Shown: positions 9,908-30,749, numbered from the stretch's first letter. The stretch is 64,000 nt of DNA from Dictyostelium discoideum (GCA_000004695.1 CM000151.3:3552001-3616000); one strand, 5' to 3'. The notes: a model not told the origin generated them from the letters alone. Numbers and translations: made by a program.

Positions 9908-10229
9908 AAAAACATACAATAATATTTGAATTAATAATTGGTAAAACATATTCTTCAATTATTTCTAAAACTGATTCTACAATATCATCAACACGAGCGC
10001 TTTCTTGTAATGATTTACCAGAAAAATTATGATTATTTGAAATATATCTAGAAATGACAGCAGATTGGCCCAATAAATAATCTTCATCTTTTTGTGTATG
10101 TTTTATAAATTGATTATATGATTCCAATTTATTTGTAAATTCTTGGTTAATTTCACTTAATTGATTTATTTCATATTCTACACCCAAATATGATAATAAA
10201 ATTTTAAAAATATAAATTGATGATATCAT
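9472..10229 (-). CDS. Glutathione S-transferase-like protein, 2 exons (10229-9918, 9764-9472) with an apparent 1-nt frameshift in exon 2 (possible pseudogene or sequence error)
   Basis: Exon 1 reads ...LLGQSAVISRYISNNHNFSGKSLQESARVDDIVESVLEI.. (GST N-domain/linker pattern). A GTATGT donor lies at 9917 and an aaatag acceptor at 9765. Exon 2 begins NEEITKLLCTHFNDFENQLSKSTF in one frame. The GST C-domain TGDSTTLADLYLFILYDITLRYLENHGHLAHHFNEKYPHLERL.. is in the -1 frame. The switch is at a TTTT run near 9690. Adding one T would give ...STFFSTGDSTTLADLYLF..., a typical GST motif. The predicted N-terminus looks about 10 aa short, so a 5' micro-exon may be missing. Confidence 0.55.
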
Positions 10230-10889
10230 AATTTTTTTATTATTTCTTCTTTTATTATAATTATTATTTTTATTATTAATTTTTATTTTTTATTTTTTTT
10301 ATTATTATTTTATTTTTTTTTAAACAGTTCTAGTTTTATTTTAAAATAAAATTAAAATTTTTTAAAACAATAACTACTACAATAATAAATAATTATATAT
10401 TATTTTTTTATTTTTAATTATAAATATAAATATAAATATAAAAAAAAAAATTGCAAAATTATTTAATAAAATAAAATAATTTTTTTTTTTTTTTTTATAT
10501 TAAAATTTTAAATAAGGAAAAAATGTGTGTGTGGAATATATATAGATTGTAGTTTTGTTTGGTTTTAAACATAATTATGTGGATCTAGATGATAACATAA
10601 AAAAACACAAAAACTTTAAAATTTTATAATAACTAAAAATTACTAAAAAGACGTAAAATTATAAAACACAAAAAAGACTGAAAAAAAAAAATTTTATTAT
10701 TATGGTAATTATAAAAAAGGAAAAATAAAAAGAAAAAATAAAAATCAAATAAAAAAAAAAAAAACAAAAATAAAACTACTGAAAATAATGAAAAATAATT
10801 AAATAAATATTAAAATAATAATAATAATAATGATAATAATTATTATTTTTTGATGGGTTGTGGGTTATTATTATAATAGTTGATTTTTT

Positions 10890-23666: not shown

Positions 23667-23824
23667 ATGGAGTTTTTAAAATTAATATTGTTTCTAATAA
23701 TTTTTTATATAATCCATAATACTGTTTGTATTTTTTCTTTAATTTTAATAAAAAAAAAAAAAAAAAAAGGATAATAATAATAATTATACTTTTTTCTAAA
23801 CACAGATATGGTAAAATTTAAATA

Positions 23825-23868
<44 letters not shown>

Positions 23869-24182
23869 GAAATTAAATCAATTTTTATCAGTATATTAAA
23901 TTTAAAAAAATAAATAAAAATGAATTAAAAGGACCAATTCCAATTCCAATTTTAGGAAATTTATATCAACTTACAAGTGGTTTACCACACAGAGATTTAA
24001 CTAAAATATCTGAAAAATATGGTGGAATTTATAGATTTTGGTTTGCTGATTTATACACTGTTGTATTATCTGATCCAATTTTGATTAGAGAAATGTTTGT
24101 TAACAATGGTGATTATTTCCTAGACAGACCAAAAATACCTTCAATAAGACATGCAACTCATTATCATGGTATTGCAAGTTAG

Positions 24183-24219
<37 letters not shown>

Positions 24220-25533
24220 AAAAAACTAAAAAAAAAATTAATTATTAATTTTTTTTTTTTTTTTTTTTTAAAAAAAAAAGCATCTTCTGGTGAATATTGG
24301 TTAAAAATTAGAGATATAATTAATAAAGCAATGAGAAAAACCAATTTAAAATTAATTTATGATTCATTAGATCAACAAGTTGATAATTTAATTGAATCAA
24401 TGAATAAAATTGAAAGTGATGGACAAGTATTTGAACCACGTATTTATTTTAAAAAATATACAATGGCAGCAATGTATAAATTCATTTTCAATGAAGAAAT
24501 AAATTTTAATAATGAAATATCTGAATTAATTGGGCCAATTGAACAAGTTTTCAAAGATTTAGGAAGTGGTAGTTTATTTGATGTTTTATTAATATCAAGA
24601 CCATTATATTATCAATGGATTGAACATACTGATAAAAATTATCCAAAAATTTTAAATTTTTTAAAAAAAAAATATCATCAACATTTAAAAACTTATAATC
24701 CAGAAATTCAAAGAGATTTATTAGATTTATTAATTAAAGAATATTATAGTGGAAGTGATGATGATATTTTAACAATTATTGCAACTATAAATGATTTATT
24801 TTTAGCTGGTTTGTATTAAATTAGTTTTATTATTTTTTATTAAAAAATTTCAATTATTAATAAATTTATTTAAAATAGGTACTGATACAAGTAGTGCTTC
24901 ATTAGAATATATGGTTATGATGTTAGTTAATTATCCAGAAATTCAAGAGAAAGTATATGATGAAATTAAATTAACTGTTAACGGTAGAAATAAAGTTTTA
25001 TTATCTGATAGACAATTTACACCATATACAGTTTCATTTATTAAAGAAACATTAAGATATAAACCACCATCTTCTGTTGGTGTACCAAGAACTACTTCTC
25101 AAGATATTATAATTGGTGATAAATTCATTCCAAAAGATGCTCAAATTTTTATAAATTATTATGGACTTTCAAGAAATCAAGATTATTTTGAAAATCCTGA
25201 ACAATTTGAACCATCAAGATTTATGAATCCAGATACAAATATTGCATTTTTACCATTTAGTATTGGTACAAGAAATTGTGTGTAAGTAAAAAAAAATTAT
25301 TTATTTTATTATTTTTTTTAATTATTTATTTAAAAATTGTTAAATTAATTTTTTTTTTTTTTTTAAGTGGTCAAAATTTTGCATTAGATGAAATGTTTCT
25401 TGCATTTTCAAATATAATTTTAAATTTTAAATTTAGTTCAATTGATGGGAAACAAATTGATGAAACTGAATTGTATGGAGTTACATTAAGATGCAAGAAT
25501 AAATTTAATGTATCCATTAAAAAAAGAATTTAA
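23667..25533 (+). CDS. Cytochrome P450 (array copy 1); 5 exons (about 23667-23723, 23892-24177, 24281-24808, 24879-25281, 25368-25533)
   Basis: Exon 1 is a membrane anchor, [19 protein letters not shown], with a gtttgt donor. Exon 2 reads ..[14 protein letters not shown]...[18 protein letters not shown]. It reads straight through the intron position used by copies 2 and 3 and ends at a gttagt donor. Exon 3 reads (T)[19 protein letters not shown]...FFLAG with a gtttgt donor. Exon 4 reads (G)TDTSS...ETLRYKPP...PSRF...PFSIGTRNC with a gtaagt donor. Exon 5 reads (V)[10 protein letters not shown]...KKRI with a stop. The ETLR, PxRF and FSxGxRxCxG heme-loop motifs are present. Confidence 0.75.
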
Positions 25534-25577
25534 TTCATTGTAAAATTTAATAAAAAATAATTAATTATAATAAATAA

Positions 25578-25630
<53 letters not shown>

Positions 25631-26371
25631 CTGTGAGCGTGTAAATATTGGATTAAATTTTATTGAATATTATTGTGTCCAAATTTAACCCAATACAAAA
25701 AAAATTATAATTTTTTATTATTTTTATTATTATTTTCATTATTTTTTTTATTTTTTTTTTTATTTTTTATTTTTTATAAAATCTCAAAAATTGAGAATAA
25801 CAATGAAAAAAAAAAAAAAAAAAAAAAAGAAAAAAAAAGAAAAGAAAAAAAGTGTGTGTATTTTTTGTGCATATTGAATAGAAAATGTGTGGGGATCTTA
25901 AAATTTTTTTTTAATTTTTTTTTTTTAATAATGGTGTTAGTATTATTTTTTTATTTTTTATTTTTTTTTTATTTTTTTTATTTTTTTTATTTTTTTTTAT
26001 TTTTTTTTTTTGTACATTAGATTGTGAGGAGACATCTTACTCAGTTGAGAAAACAATAATTTATTTTTATGATTCATAGATTTACTATGTTAATCATCTA
26101 TGTTGTCAGTTTTAATTCAAACATTATTAAAATAATTTTTTTTTTTTAATTTTTTTTTTTTTATTTTTTTTTTTTTTTTTTAAACTGTTGTTGAACAAAA
26201 AAAAAAAAAAAAAAAAAAACAAAAACAAAAACAAAAAAATATTTAAACCAAAAATTAAAAATATAAATAAAAATATAAAAAATAAAAATATAATTGTTGA
26301 AAAGAAAAAAAAAAAAAAAACAAAAAAACAAAAAAAAAAATTACTTGCACACAAGTGGTAATTTAAAAAAT

Positions 26372-27703
26372 ATGGCTTTATTTGAAATTATTATTTCATT
26401 ATTTGTTGTTTATATTATACATAATGCTGTAAGTCCTATTATTTTATATTAAAAAAAATAAAAATAAATATAATTAATCTAAATTATTATTATTATTATT
26501 TTTAAAAATAATCATTTTTTAATTTTTTAATTTTTTATTTTTAAAATAATTATTTTAATTAATCAGATTTCAAAATATAAAAAAATTCATGTTAATGAGT
26601 TATGTGGTCCAACCCCAATTCCAATTTTAGGAAATCTCCATCAATTTGGAGAATTACCTCATAGAGTATTAACAAAGATGACTAAAAAGTATGGCCATAT
26701 TTTAAGGGTTTATATGGCAGACATGTACACTGTTGTTGTATCTGATCCATTATTAATTAGAGAAATGTATGTTGATAATTCTGATATTTTCACCGATAGA
26801 GTTAAAAAACCAGTATGTATCAAAATTAAATAATTAATAAATTGTGTGTTAATTTATTTTTTTTTTAATTATTAATTATTTATTTATTAATTATTAATTA
26901 TTAATTATTTTATTTAAAAAATAAAAAATTTATAAATAATTAATAATAATAATTAATTAAAATAATTAATAATTTAAAAAAAAAAAAAAAATTAATTATT
27001 AATTATTAATTATTTATTTATTAATTATTAATTATTAATTATTTTATTTAAAAAATTAAAAATTTAAATAGTCAGTTGAACATGGAACATTTTATCATGG
27101 TACAGTTACAAGTTATGGTGAACATTGGAAAAACAATAGAGAAATTGTTGGTAAAGCAATGAGAAAAACAAATTTAAAACATATTTATGAATTATTAGAT
27201 AAACAAGTTGATGTATTAATAAGATCAATGAAATCAATTGAAACCAGTGGTAAAACATTTGATACTCGTTATTATATTACAAAATTTACAATGTCAGCAA
27301 TGTTTAAATTTCTTTTCAATCATGATATTCCAGAGGATGAAGATATTAATAAAGGTGATACACAAAAATTGATGGGTCCAATGTCTGAGGTTTTTCAAAA
27401 TGCTGGTAGAGGTAGTTTATTTGATGTCATAAATATTACTCAACCACTTTATCTTTTATATTTAGAAATGTTTGATCAAAGTTTTAAAGATATTATGAAA
27501 TATCATAGAGAGAAATATAATGAACATTTAAAAACCTTTGATCCAGATGTTGAAAGAGATTTACTTGATATTTTAATTAAAGAATATGGTACTGATAATG
27601 ATGATAAAATTTTATCAATTTTGGCAACAATTAATGATTTTTTCTTAGCAGGTTTGTATTTATAAGTATTTATTATTATTATTATTTAAAAAAATAATAT
27701 TCT

Positions 27704-27739
<36 letters not shown>

Positions 27740-28384
27740 GTGTTGATACAAGTTCAACTGCTTTAGAATCAATGGTATTGATGTTAACAAATTATCCAGA
27801 AATTCAAGAAAAAGCATTTGATGAAATAAAGACAGTTGTAAATGGTAGAAGTAAAGTTAATTTATCAGATAGACAATCAACACCTTATTTAGTTGCTGTA
27901 ATAAAAGAAACATTAAGATATAAACCAATGTCACCATTTGGTTTACCAAGATCTTCATCAAAGGATTGTATGATTGGTGGTCATTTCATTCCAAAGAATG
28001 CACAAATTTTAATTAATTATCAAGCACTTGGAATGAATGAAGAATATTATGAAAATCCAGAACAATTTGATCCATCAAGATTTTTAAAAGTTGAATCAAA
28101 TGTTGCATTTTTACCATTTAGTATTGGTATTAGAAGTTGTGTGTATGTATAATTAATTTTTAAAAAAAATTAAAAAATAAACAATTAATTAATCAATTAA
28201 ATTATTTTTTTATAGGGGTCAAAGTTTTGCTCAAGATGAGCTATACATTTGTATTTCAAATATTCTTTTAAATTTTAAATTAAAATCAATTGACGGTAAA
28301 AAGATTGATGAAACTGAGGAATATGGCCTCACACTAAAAACTAAAAATAGATTCAATGTAACTCTTGAAAAAAGAATTATCTAA
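26372..28384 (+). CDS. Cytochrome P450 (array copy 2); 5 exons (26372-26428, 26567-26812, 27072-27651, 27740-28142, 28216-28384)
   Basis: Exon 1 reads [19 protein letters not shown] with a gtaagt donor. Exon 2 reads [27 protein letters not shown]...DRVKKP with a gtatgt donor. Exon 3 reads [10 protein letters not shown]...FFLAG with a gtttgt donor. Exon 4 reads (G)[26 protein letters not shown] with a gtatgt donor. Exon 5 reads (V)GSKFAQDELY...EKRII with a stop. All phases verified by hand. Confidence 0.8.
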
Positions 28385-28419
28385 TTTTTATATTTATTTA
28401 AATAATTATAATAATAATA

Positions 28420-28465
<46 letters not shown>

Positions 28466-28567
28466 AATTTAAAAAAAAACTATTTAACTTCAAAAACAAA
28501 AAAAAGGATTCATTGTGACTCAAAAAAGAAATAACAAATTTTTTAATATATTTTTTAAATAATTAAA

Positions 28568-28600
<33 letters not shown>

Positions 28601-28949
28601 AATTAAAAATATAAAATTAATAAAAATACTAGTTAACGCGATAACCTTATTTTTATTGGTTTGATATTTAACTTTATTATTCAAGAATTTCATTTTTTAC
28701 TTTCAAATTTAATAAAGATTTTTTTTTATTTTTTTTTAAAAAAGAGGGTTGGTTTTTTTTTTTTTTTTCAATTTGAAAAGAATCTTTACTTTTGAAGATA
28801 TTTATAAATTACTATAATTAATTTTTATTTTTTTTAATTTTATTTTTTTATTTTTTTTTGGCATATTTTATGGTTTTTTTTTTTGATTTTATAATTAAAT
28901 TTTTTTTTTTTTTTTTTTTTTTAATTTCATAAAATCAATTTTTAAAAAA

Positions 28950-30749
28950 ATGATATTTGGCATCATTGTGTATCTATTTTTAATTTATATTTTACATAAT
29001 GCTGTAAGTATTTTTTTATTATTTTTTCTTTTTTTTATTTTCTAAAAAATTTAAAAAACATGTTAGTCTACCAAAAAAAAAAAAAAAAAAAAATAAAAAA
29101 AAAAAAATAAAAATAAAAGTATTCAAAATATAAAAGATTAAATGAAAATCAATTACCAGGTCCTTTTCCAATTCCTATATTGGGCAACATTTATCAGTTA
29201 ACCAATTTACCTCATTTTGATTTAACAAAGATGAGTGAAAAATATGGTAAAATCTTTAGAATTTATTTAGCAGACTTATATACAGTTATTGTTTGTGATC
29301 CAATAATTGCAAGAGAGCTATTTGTTGACAAGTTTGACAATTTCATTGACAGACCAAAAATACCAGTATGTAAAATTTTTTTTTTTTTTATAATAGTTTT
29401 TATTTCTTTTTTTTTTAATAATAATAAATAAGATTAATTAATTAAATAAATAAAATAAAATAAATAGTCAGTAAAACATGGAACATTTTATCATGGTACA
29501 GTAGCATCAATGGGTGATAATTGGAAAAATAATAAAGAGATTGTTGGTAAGGCAATGAGAAAGACCAATTTAAAACATATTTATCAATTATTGGATGATC
29601 AAGTTGATGTATTAATTGAATCGATGAGAACCATTGAATCCAGTGGTGAAACATTTGATCCACGTTATTATTTAACCAAATTTACAATGTCAGCAATGTT
29701 TAAATATATTTTCAATGAAGATATTTCCAAAGATGAAGATGTGCATAATGGTCAATTAGCACAATTAATGAAACCAATGCAAAAGGTATTCAAAGATTTC
29801 GGTACTGGTAGTTTATTTGATGTTTTAGAGATAACAAGACCATTGTATTTCTTATATTTAGAATGGTTTACAAGTCATTATTATCAAGTTATTAATTTTG
29901 GTAAAATGAAAATTTATAAACATTTAGAAACTTACAAACCAGATGTTCAAAGAGACTTAATGGATCTATTGATTAAAGAATATGGTACAGAAACTGATGA
30001 TCAAATTTTATCAATCTCTGCAACAGTTAGTGATTTCTTTTTAGCTGGTGTTGATACTTCTGCAACTTCTTTAGAATTAATTGTAATGATGTTAATTAAT
30101 TATCCAGAATATCAAGAGAAAGCTTATAATGAAATTAAATCAGCATTATCATCAAATGGTGGCGGTGGTGGTGGTGGTTTAACTCAGAGAAATAAAGTTT
30201 TGTTATCAGATAGACAATCAACACCATTTGTTGTATCATTATTTAAAGAAACATTAAGATATAAACCAATATCACCATTTGGTTTACCAAGATCAACTAC
30301 CTCTGATATCATTTTAAATAATGGTCAATTTATTCCAAAGAATGCTCAAATTTTAATTAATTATCATGCATTATCTAGAAATGAAGAATATTTTGAAAAT
30401 CCAAATCAATTTGATCCAACTAGATTTTTAAATTCTGATTCAAATCCAGCTTTCATGCCATTTAGTATTGGTCCAAGAAATTGCGTGTAATGTATCTAAA
30501 TTATATTCTCACTCAATTACTTAATTGATTTGAGTATTATCATGTATATATTTTCAGATATTAATTTTTTATTTTTAATAATTTAGTGGAAGTAATTTTG
30601 CCCAAGATGAAATTTATATTGCATTATCAAATATGATATTAAATTTCAAATTTAAATCAATTGATGGTAAACCAGTTGATGAAACTCAAACTTATGGTTT
30701 AACATTAAAACCAAACCCATTCAAAGTAATTCTTGAAAAAAGAAAATAA
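28950..30749 (+). CDS. Cytochrome P450 (array copy 3); 4 exons (28950-29003, 29120-29365, 29468-30486, 30587-30749)
   Basis: Exon 1 reads [18 protein letters not shown] with a gtaagt donor. Exon 2 reads [27 protein letters not shown]...DRPKIP with a gtatgt donor. Exon 3 runs [10 protein letters not shown]... through [12 protein letters not shown] (no intron at the LAG|VD position). It contains a (Gly)8 insertion, [12 protein letters not shown] and PFSIGPRNC, with a gtaatg donor. Exon 4 reads (V)[10 protein letters not shown]...EKRK with a stop. Confidence 0.8.

Follow-up and report, generated by a model that had tools for sequence, protein, structure and literature searches.

Probable intron loss and nearby intron gain among old tandem CYP508A paralogues of Dictyostelium

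In P450 families of plants and insects, introns are lost and gained among paralogues. CYP508A3, CYP508A1 and CYP508A2 are three neighbouring genes on chromosome 2 of Dictyostelium discoideum, and their introns resemble three described systems. Exact absences, apparently lineage-specific new positions and a reading frame untouched by the losses are seen here as in the intron turnover of other paralogues, such as those of an alpha-amylase study (PMC3096672). Mutually exclusive intron positions lying close together in homologous genes are also a feature of cases discussed as intron sliding, defined as a migration of splice sites in which intron becomes exon and exon becomes intron, with relocation over 1-60 bases (Rogozin et al. 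2012, PMC3488318). An alternative-splicing intermediate has been modelled for sliding (Tarrio et al., as summarised in PMC3488318); statistical support exists for 1-bp slides only, and none for longer relocation (PMC3488318). Finally, a new intron at a previously intronless site recalls the fungal and algal intron transposition and introner-like elements of Torriani et al. 2011, as these are cited in PMC3488318.

The window analyzed here is a stretch of 64,000 nucleotides, in which cyp508A3, cyp508A1 and cyp508A2 are the only P450 loci. We built spliced models of the three genes by hand, translated them and compared them with the deposited proteins, which they match exactly:

23667-25533, + strand: copy 1, cyp508A3, 479 aa, identical to XP_001134606 'Probable cytochrome P450 508A3'
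23667-23723, 23892-24177, 24281-24808, 24879-25281 and 25368-25533, + strand: the five exons of cyp508A3, with the ATG at 23667
26372-28384, + strand: copy 2, cyp508A1, 484 aa, identical to XP_644330 'Probable cytochrome P450 508A1'
26372-26428, 26567-26812, 27072-27651, 27740-28142 and 28216-28384, + strand: the five exons of cyp508A1
28950-30749, + strand: copy 3, cyp508A2, 493 aa, identical to XP_644331 'Probable cytochrome P450 508A2'
28950-29003, 29120-29365, 29468-30486 and 30587-30749, + strand: the four exons of cyp508A2

The identity with proteins of the public D. discoideum models ('-1/-2' copies in AX4) implies the same exon-intron structures. P450 nomenclature places proteins in one family above 40% and in one subfamily above 55% amino-acid identity. 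The A3 protein shares 59% identity with A1, 60% with A2 and 55% with A4, and A1 shares 65% with A2; identities among the three copies above 55%, together with the UniProt names 508A3, 508A1 and 508A2, assign them to the CYP508A subfamily. All three match Pfam PF00067 (A3, E = 3e-94; A1, E = 9e-104; A2, E = 3e-90) over profile positions 2-445 of 462 or more, and all three translations contain the heme-binding loop FxxGxRxCxG with its cysteine ligand, ETLR (ExxR) and AGTDTS/AGVDTS (I-helix AGxDT). In the literature searched, we found no account comparing intron positions between cyp508A1, A2 and A3 or addressing their polarity.

We number the predicted introns i1 to i4 and call the shifted intron of copy 1 i2':

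23724-23891, + strand: A3 i1, phase 0, after ..IIHNT, 168 nt, donor GTTTGT
24138-24143, + strand: A3 site homologous to i2, CCT/TCA, junction between 24140 and 24141 after DRPKIP; read through, no GT
24178-24280, + strand: A3 i2', 103 nt, phase 1 in Thr codon a/ca, donor GTTAGT, acceptor ..AAAAAG; the exon resumes at 24281
24809-24878, + strand: A3 i3, in I-helix LFLA G/TDTS, phase 1, 70 nt, donor GTTTGT
25282-25367, + strand: A3 i4, phase 2, in the Val codon after the heme cysteine, 86 nt
26429-26566, + strand: A1 i1, phase 0, after HNA
26813-27071, + strand: A1 i2, canonical position, phase 0, after DRVKKP, 259 nt
27652-27739, + strand: A1 i3, FFLA G/VDTS, phase 1 within the Gly codon, donor GTTTGT
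28143-28215, + strand: A1 i4, phase 2, after the heme Cys
29004-29119, + strand: A2 i1, phase 0, after HNA, 116 nt
29366-29467, + strand: A2 i2, canonical position, phase 0, after DRPKIP, 102 nt
30044-30052, + strand: A2 site homologous to i3, GCT G/GT GTT, junction 30047/30048; no intron, and gapless against copies 1 and 2
30487-30586, + strand: A2 i4, phase 2, donor GTAATG, 100 nt
30158-30178, + strand: A2 (Gly)7 run, inside a species-specific insertion

Thus cyp508A1 has i1, i2, i3 and i4; cyp508A2 has i1, i2 and i4 and reads TTA GCT GGT GTT GAT without interruption at the i3 site; and cyp508A3 has i1, i3, i4 and i2' but not i2. In CDS coordinates the i2 site is at 306 (copy 1), 303 (copy 2) and 300 (copy 3). 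The three different intron sets claimed in a preliminary description of this locus are borne out by models identical to the deposited proteins, as are the phase 0 intron shared by copies 2 and 3 after DRVKKP/DRPKIP, the uninterrupted reading of copy 1 at that site, and the FLAG/xDTS intron present in copies 1 and 2 and missing from copy 3. For the shifted intron of copy 1, the donor at 24178 and acceptor at 24280 hold, but it lies 37 nt (12 codons and 1 base) downstream of the canonical site rather than about 14 codons. The introns common to all three copies, i1 (phase 0, after HNA/HNT) and i4 (phase 2, in the codon after the heme cysteine), had not been listed in that description.

A splice-aware alignment of the copy-2 protein to copy-1 DNA recovers i2' unaided. 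D. citrinum, D. firmibasis and D. dimigraforme each have it at the identical position and phase in their A3 orthologue; the A3 exon lengths are 57/286/528/403/163 in three species and, except for exon 3 (525), also in D. citrinum. Across the four species, the i2' donors are GTTAGT, GTATGT, GTAAGT and GTATGT and the acceptors AAG or TAG, while the interiors, 89-375 nt long, are unrelated; in D. discoideum the intron is almost pure A/T homopolymer. Were i2' retained, the reading frame would meet a stop within 1-7 codons in each of the four species; in D. discoideum, GCA AGT would be followed at once by an in-frame TAG. With GT..AG termini, a conserved position with diverged interior and a frame restored only by removal, i2' has the features of a U2-type GT-AG intron. 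We infer that the introns are spliced as modelled. That copy 1 might instead be non-functional or otherwise spliced, its intron map reflecting an annotation artefact or a pseudogene, seems barely credible. Such a reading could appeal to the D. discoideum donor, GTTAGT, which is not the commonest form, and to an alternative GT 9 nt upstream (G/GTATTG); yet the modelled donor position is conserved, the upstream GT is missing in D. citrinum (GGGATT), and the modelled splice yields a gapless alignment with the paralogues. The cyp508A3 contigs found in Logan are unspliced genomic DNA, with no transcript contig of the gene among them, and a scan of metagenomes found no spliced i2' junction; against the artefact reading, CYP508A3-2 is among the differentially expressed genes of an RNA-seq study (bioRxiv 10.1101/2022.07.08.499268). 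Moreover, the A3 reading frame is intact in four species, with dN/dS among orthologues of 0.09-0.22 (A1, 0.06-0.10; A2, 0.12-0.17). By these measures, all three are intact P450 genes under purifying selection.

D. firmibasis and D. citrinum have these genes in the same order at the syntenic locus, where D. dimigraforme has A3 and A1. Protein identity among the A1, A2 and A3 paralogues is only 59-65%, and their synonymous sites are close to saturation. This comparison indicates that the array predates the divergence of the four species and is old, not young as the preliminary description had it. The shifted intron is therefore an old, fixed feature of CYP508A3 and not a recent one.

The distribution of introns among relatives suggests a direction of change. 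The i1 position is occupied in 21 of 21 CYP508-type genes examined. A1, A2, A4 and D. purpureum 43840 carry i2; both i2 and i2' are absent from CYP508B-like genes, D. purpureum 92912 and the P. violaceum, C. fasciculata and T. lacteum homologues. A1, A3 and D. purpureum 43840 carry i3, which is missing from A2 in the three species having this gene (D. citrinum and D. firmibasis included), all reading through the site without a gap. At both sites, i3 in A2 and i2 in A3, gapless flanks combine with presence of the intron in outgroups, the signature of exact loss. A3 and A2 each lack one internal intron and keep its neighbours on both sides; A4 lacks both 3' introns, i3 and i4 together. We placed A3 by maximum likelihood (Gonnet+G4, 14 taxa, all 105 topologies of A1/A2/A3/A4/Dpur), with D. 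purpureum 43840 the one CYP508A gene outside the discoideum complex to break the stem. A3 is nested among the i2-bearing lineages with 96.6% of RELL support, against 3.4% for A3 as sister to all others; in a KH-type test the nesting is favoured, not significantly (delta lnL 15.2, SE 13.4, z = 1.1). Neighbor-joining trees also put A3 inside the i2-bearing clade, with internal nodes at only 43-71% bootstrap. A3 nested among i2-bearing lineages implies that it lost i2 and gained i2'.

We therefore favor, with a probability of roughly 0.8 on the sequence evidence, a history of old tandem paralogues in which A3 lost i2 and gained i2' 37 nt downstream while A2 lost i3. The ancestral CYP508A gene would have had four introns, i1 (phase 0, HNA), i2 (phase 0, DRxKxP), i3 (phase 1, in the Gly of AGxDT) and i4 (phase 2, heme cysteine), all of which cyp508A1 would have retained. 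On the A3 stem, after separation of the paralogues and before the split of D. discoideum, D. citrinum, D. firmibasis and D. dimigraforme, i2 would have been precisely removed and a new GT-AG spliceosomal intron, i2', would have appeared 37 nt downstream in phase 1, leaving the coding sequence intact on both sides. On the A2 stem, i3 would have been precisely removed. The losses probably occurred by recombination with spliced cDNA or by exact genomic deletion. Loss and gain had been offered as one possibility by the preliminary description, which pointed to other Dictyostelium species as a means of polarising the changes; the orthologue distribution and the likelihood analysis favor this possibility, as loss and gain in copy 1 and loss in copy 3. 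The A3 case is clean but ordinary intron turnover. It differs from other paralogue turnover in that one lineage shows a loss and a gain separated by just 37 nt, four species share the new position as a fixed feature, and the introns of the host genome are nearly pure A/T.

Alternatively, the ancestor may have been intronless in this region, i2 being gained by the ancestor of A1, A2, A4 and D. purpureum 43840 and i2' independently by A3, with no loss at all. Distant CYP508 genes without an intron at either site fit this improbable scheme, and the KH-type test does not reject the tree it needs, with A3 sister to all other CYP508A. However, such trees receive the 3.4% RELL share noted above, the best of them is 15 lnL units worse, and none is ever the best tree by neighbor joining; A3 also adjoins A1 and A2 physically in four species, while A4 and D. 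purpureum 43840 are located elsewhere. Still less probable is an ancestral micro-exon of 37 nt flanked by both i2 and i2', with i2 then disappearing in A3 and i2' in every other lineage. This would account for the proximity of the two sites without a gain on the A3 branch, but none of the 14 CYP508A genes examined carries both introns, and on the favored trees i2' would have to be lost independently three times or more and i2 once, where the loss-and-gain history needs a single loss and a single gain. The preliminary description had also raised intron sliding, in which the same intron would have moved through alternative donor and acceptor sites. The distance of 37 nt falls in the 1-60 nt defining range (PMC3488318) and the positions are mutually exclusive, as sliding would have it. 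Yet sliding would put former intron sequence in place of 37 nt of coding sequence, and in every copy and species these 37 nt hold 12 homologous codons, aligned without gaps, with S-x-x-H-x-T-x-Y-H-G conserved; moreover, the intron is in phase 0 at one site and in phase 1 at the other. The homology of the 12 intervening codons rules out drift of the splice sites, leaving sliding in the strict sense next to no probability: unlike the cases considered by Rogozin et al. (PMC3488318), the CYP508A genes conserve the coding sequence between the sites, which a splice-site shift cannot yield.

The loss-and-gain history leaves the proximity of the two events to be considered. Were the gain independent, it would fall within 37 nt of the lost intron, in a CDS of 1.44 kb, with a chance of about 5% (74/1437), a hint that the loss and the gain in A3 may not be independent. 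One way to couple them, unlikely but the least so of the alternatives, is a relocation in one step: after excision, i2 would have entered the cyp508A3 transcript again by reverse splicing, 37 nt downstream, and a reverse-transcribed copy of this product would have been brought into the gene by recombination. Such intragenic intron transposition is one form of the loss-and-gain history and has the same outcome. Mutually exclusive sites only 37 nt apart would be expected from it, and the family has a second cluster of near-identical intron positions, at the I-helix, where the intron occupies three positions within 12 nt in three subfamilies, two of them sharing the otherwise rare donor GTTTGT. 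On the other side, i2' has no detectable similarity to i2 (z -0.3 to 2.9), a comparison without power, since true orthologous introns score likewise (z -1.1 to 2.8), and intron transposition is documented in few lineages only (PMC3488318). That i2 vanished and i2' appeared in one event, and that CYP508 may have local hot spots of intron movement, is a slightly more doubtful proposition still. As to an introner-like or transposon origin, i2' has no significant match to other introns of the family beyond composition (A/T homopolymer and microsatellite), and no direct repeat is visible at its junctions, GCAA/gt..ag/CATC; in having neither a family of similar introns nor flanking repeats, it departs from the introner-like elements of Torriani et al. 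2011, as cited in PMC3488318.

If the polarity proposed here is true, cyp508A3 provides a dated and fixed intron gain, in a lineage where gains are thought rare, beside a precise loss and with the homologous coding sequence preserved between the two sites, and a useful textbook-style counter-example to calling nearby intron positions 'sliding'. It also offers a concrete case in which to study a possible coupling between a loss and a gain close by; were the one-event reading true, CYP508 would be a tractable natural system for intron relocation over more than 1 bp. Knowledge of P450 function or splicing is left unchanged by this case.

The glycine run in copy 3, previously given as eight residues, has seven (30158-30178); its place is taken by NNSDGGGS in the D. 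citrinum A2 orthologue, and D. firmibasis lacks the insertion. Within the i2 intron of cyp508A1 a segment of about 75 nt is duplicated (26862-26938 and 26996-27070), and the orthologues of this intron measure only 78-121 nt, against 259 nt in D. discoideum.

Positions 23667-30749 hold three genes arranged head-to-tail on the plus strand, in a window whose G+C content is about 20% and whose many homopolymers are characteristic of Dictyostelium. Splice sites were set by eye and their coordinates then confirmed with a script, giving the following exon structures:

Copy 1, cyp508A3 (A3): exons 23667-23723, 23892-24177, 24281-24808, 24879-25281 and 25368-25533, plus strand, 479 aa
Copy 2, cyp508A1 (A1): exons 26372-26428, 26567-26812, 27072-27651, 27740-28142 and 28216-28384, plus strand, 484 aa
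Copy 3, cyp508A2 (A2): exons 28950-29003, 29120-29365, 29468-30486 and 30587-30749, plus strand, 493 aa

The translations match, residue for residue, the deposited AX4 proteins 'Probable cytochrome P450 508A3', '508A1' and '508A2', and an exact-threading search returned no other exon structures for them. Each protein has a Pfam p450 match (E <= 3e-90) with heme loop, ExxR and AGxDT motifs, and all introns have GT-AG termini and 3-16% G+C. No further P450 locus was found in the 64-kb window by tblastn with copy 2 as query. As genes and models are present in public databases, the exon structures are already known; no paper on CYP508 intron positions was found in the literature searched. Differential intron loss with occasional gain is a well-known event type among paralogues, of which the CYP508A triplet is a tidy new instance, not a new phenomenon. 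AX4 is known for a large chromosome 2 duplication. The 8.48 Mb chromosome record lists every one of the three proteins under two GenBank EAL/EAS accessions, and the name 'CYP508A3-2' is in literature use; both fit this duplication, and the triplet is thus probably present twice in AX4.

The preliminary description had recognized three different intron sets in this triplet, and these were borne out at the same positions. Copies 2 and 3 share a phase-0 intron, hereafter i2, after DRVKKP and DRPKIP, respectively, and copy 1 does read through this site, with CCT/TCA at 24140/24141 and no GT. The shifted intron of copy 1, i2', was also correctly located (24178-24280, 103 nt, phase 1, within the Thr codon after HGIA), and a splice-aware aligner given the copy-2 protein and copy-1 DNA picks it unprompted. 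The shift itself, put at about 14 codons, is actually 37 nt, or 12 codons and one base (copy 1 CDS 306 to 343). Intron i3, which interrupts the I-helix at the AGxDT Gly (phase 1), occurs in copies 1 and 2 and not in copy 3, as described; the glycine run of copy 3 (30158-30178) has seven residues, not eight. Two introns common to all three copies had escaped mention: i1 (phase 0, after HNA/HNT) and i4 (phase 2, in the codon that follows the heme cysteine).

Comparative evidence argues strongly that i2' is a real intron. An A3 orthologue is found at the syntenic locus of D. firmibasis, D. citrinum and D. dimigraforme, with exons of 57/286/528/403/163 nt (exon 3 is 525 nt in D. citrinum). In these species i2' lies at the same nucleotide and in the same phase, TTGCAA being followed by GTAAGT in D. 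firmibasis and GTATGT in the other two. Its interiors are unrelated between species, lengths range from 89 to 375 nt, and in every species its retention leads to a stop within 1-7 codons. A3 orthologues show a dN/dS of 0.09-0.22, with similar values for A1 and A2. D. discoideum has another GT 9 nt before the donor; this GT is not conserved (D. citrinum has GGGATT), and its use would remove three aligned residues. CYP508A3-2 is an entry in an RNA-seq differential-expression list (bioRxiv 10.1101/2022.07.08.499268), so that cyp508A3 is transcribed. Logan contigs with a cyp508A3 fragment are unspliced genomic DNA from other strains that starts within the i2' poly-T, and a degenerate spliced-junction pattern (HYHGIATSSGEYW) had 0 matches in metagenome contigs. 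As deposited, the D. firmibasis A3 model (467 aa) has an apparent canonical 246-nt exon 2; this exception was ruled out, as the gene shares the shifted intron, and a homology-guided model (479 aa) has the same structure as in D. discoideum. The deposited model, RB653_010522 (10001-10230 of the D. firmibasis locus, L001), misplaces intron 1 and skips a conserved 13-residue segment. The D. firmibasis i2' (L001 10473-10847) measures 375 nt, enlarged by a long (ATA)n microsatellite.

We derived structures for 23 CYP508-type genes from D. discoideum, D. citrinum, D. firmibasis, D. dimigraforme, D. purpureum, P. violaceum, C. fasciculata and T. lacteum, and mapped 22 onto one protein alignment; L009, a D. 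purpureum contig, carries a second P450 gene that aligns poorly and was omitted. Among the mapped genes, i1 is universal and i4 widespread. Carriers of i2 are A1, A2, the D. discoideum paralogue CYP508A4 (A4) and D. purpureum 43840, and i2' is confined to the four A3 orthologues; none has both. Both introns are absent from the more distant genes (CYP508B-like, D. purpureum 92912, P. violaceum, C. fasciculata, T. lacteum). Carriers of i3 include A1, A3 and D. purpureum 43840; it is missing, with gapless read-through, from A2 in all three species having this gene.

Since i2' occurs only in A3 orthologues and distant genes lack both introns, the distribution points to a gain of i2' on the A3 stem, whatever the tree. 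Loss of i2 in A3, on the other hand, depends on A3 nesting among i2-bearing lineages. The comparison with clusters in other Dictyostelium species, proposed earlier as a way to tell gain from loss, favors this nesting. Neighbor-joining trees nest A3 among these lineages, with bootstrap values of 97-99% for the CYP508A clade and 43-71% for internal nodes. For maximum likelihood, we used a Gonnet-derived rate matrix, four gamma categories and 14 taxa, and optimized every rooted arrangement (105 in all) of A1, A2, A3, A4 and D. purpureum 43840. Two trees score best, (((A1,(A2,A3)),A4),Dpur), with lnL -9295.5, and ((((A1,A2),A3),A4),Dpur), with lnL -9296.9; the best arrangement with A3 sister to all others reaches -9310.7. 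RELL gives this last placement 3.4% versus 96.6% for the remainder, and a KH-type comparison alone is not significant (delta 15.2, SE 13.4). Gene order points in the same direction as the trees, as A3, A1 and A2 are physically adjacent in four species and A4 and D. purpureum 43840 lie elsewhere. We thus consider it likely, with a probability of about 0.8, that A3 lost i2 and gained i2'. These trees also imply that i3 was lost in A2 and, independently, in A4.

How could an intron disappear and another arise so close by? Intron sliding, in its usual sense, moves an intron to new splice sites by way of an alternative-splicing intermediate (PMC3488318), and here would put former intron sequence in place of the 37 nt. 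Yet the 12 codons separating the sites show clear homology and no gaps (for example SVRHSTHYHGIA in A3 orthologues and SMKYGTYYHGTA in other lineages), and sliding is therefore rejected. This leaves precise loss plus gain, as two events or one. If the two were coupled, the excised intron would reverse-splice into the same transcript, which would then be reverse transcribed and recombined into the gene. Proximity is the sole hint of such coupling: if gains were independent of losses, about 5% of them would land 37 nt or less from the lost site. In local alignments against shuffled controls, i2' and i2 score at background; orthologous introns also do so between species, and the dissimilarity thus says nothing on common origin. 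Neither a flanking repeat nor an AGGT proto-splice site was found at i2', where the spliced junction is CAA/CAT. Gene conversion near the i2 site, from a paralogue or cDNA, was rejected, as sliding-window nucleotide identity has no peak at nt 309-346. A possible duplication trace, in which the D. discoideum donor context GCAAGTTAGTAT resembles copy-2 exon ACAAGTTATGGT, was also discarded, since orthologues have GTAAGT or GTATGT.

The three genes occur in the same order and between the same neighbors in D. firmibasis and D. citrinum, with small ORFs upstream and, downstream on the minus strand, an FNIP/RING gene and a GDPD/CBM20 gene. In D. dimigraforme, the syntenic array (L007 7411-11870) contains only A3 and A1, and nothing fills the place of A2 before the FNIP/RING gene; as the A2 lineage predates the species split, a deletion is implied. 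Protein identity among paralogues is 59-65%, and their synonymous divergence of about 0.6 (NG86/JC) is no lower than the between-species value of about 0.44. By shared synteny and paralogue divergence, the array is therefore not young, and its intron differences were already fixed when these species diverged. The earlier interpretation, loss and gain or sliding inside a young tandem array, is therefore partly supported: loss and gain stand, sliding and youth do not.

CYP508A4 (L004 4001-5873) has a further distinct intron set: i1, i2 and a private phase-2 intron of 180 nt, 88 nt upstream of i2, whose retention leads to an immediate stop; both 3' introns, i3 and i4, are absent. A3 and A4 share 77-83% nucleotide identity over CDS nt 45-225, versus 68% overall, and more than A3 shares there with A1 or A2. 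An old conversion tract or local constraint could account for this stretch, which includes window positions 23712-23723 and 23892-24012 (copy 1 CDS nt 45-180).

The position of the I-helix intron differs among three CYP508 subfamilies, the three sites lying within 12 nt of one another (comparison loci L008 3952-4033, L010 with three genes, and L009 3001-4900). It lies inside the Gly of AGxDT in A-type genes (phase 1; 24809-24878 and 27652-27739), after AGN and before DT in CYP508B-like genes (+5 nt, phase 0), and after AGTDT in D. purpureum 92912 (+12 nt, phase 1). A GTTTGT donor is common to A-type (D. discoideum complex) and B-like I-helix introns, which suggests that they may be one intron shifted by 5 nt; in this gene set, the donor occurs in 12 of 13 I-helix introns versus 1 of 48 others. 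Copy 1 intron 1 has a GTTTGT donor (23724-23729) where orthologues have GTATGT or GTAAGT.

The i2 of copy 2 is 259 nt long, versus 78-121 nt in orthologues, and contains a direct duplication of about 75 nt (26862-26938 and 26996-27070, about 96% identity by Smith-Waterman) that extends to the 3' splice-site region. The Gly7 insertion of copy 3 occurs in D. discoideum alone, the A2 orthologues having NNSDGGGS (D. citrinum) or no insertion (D. firmibasis), and is thus a fast-evolving loop or microsatellite.
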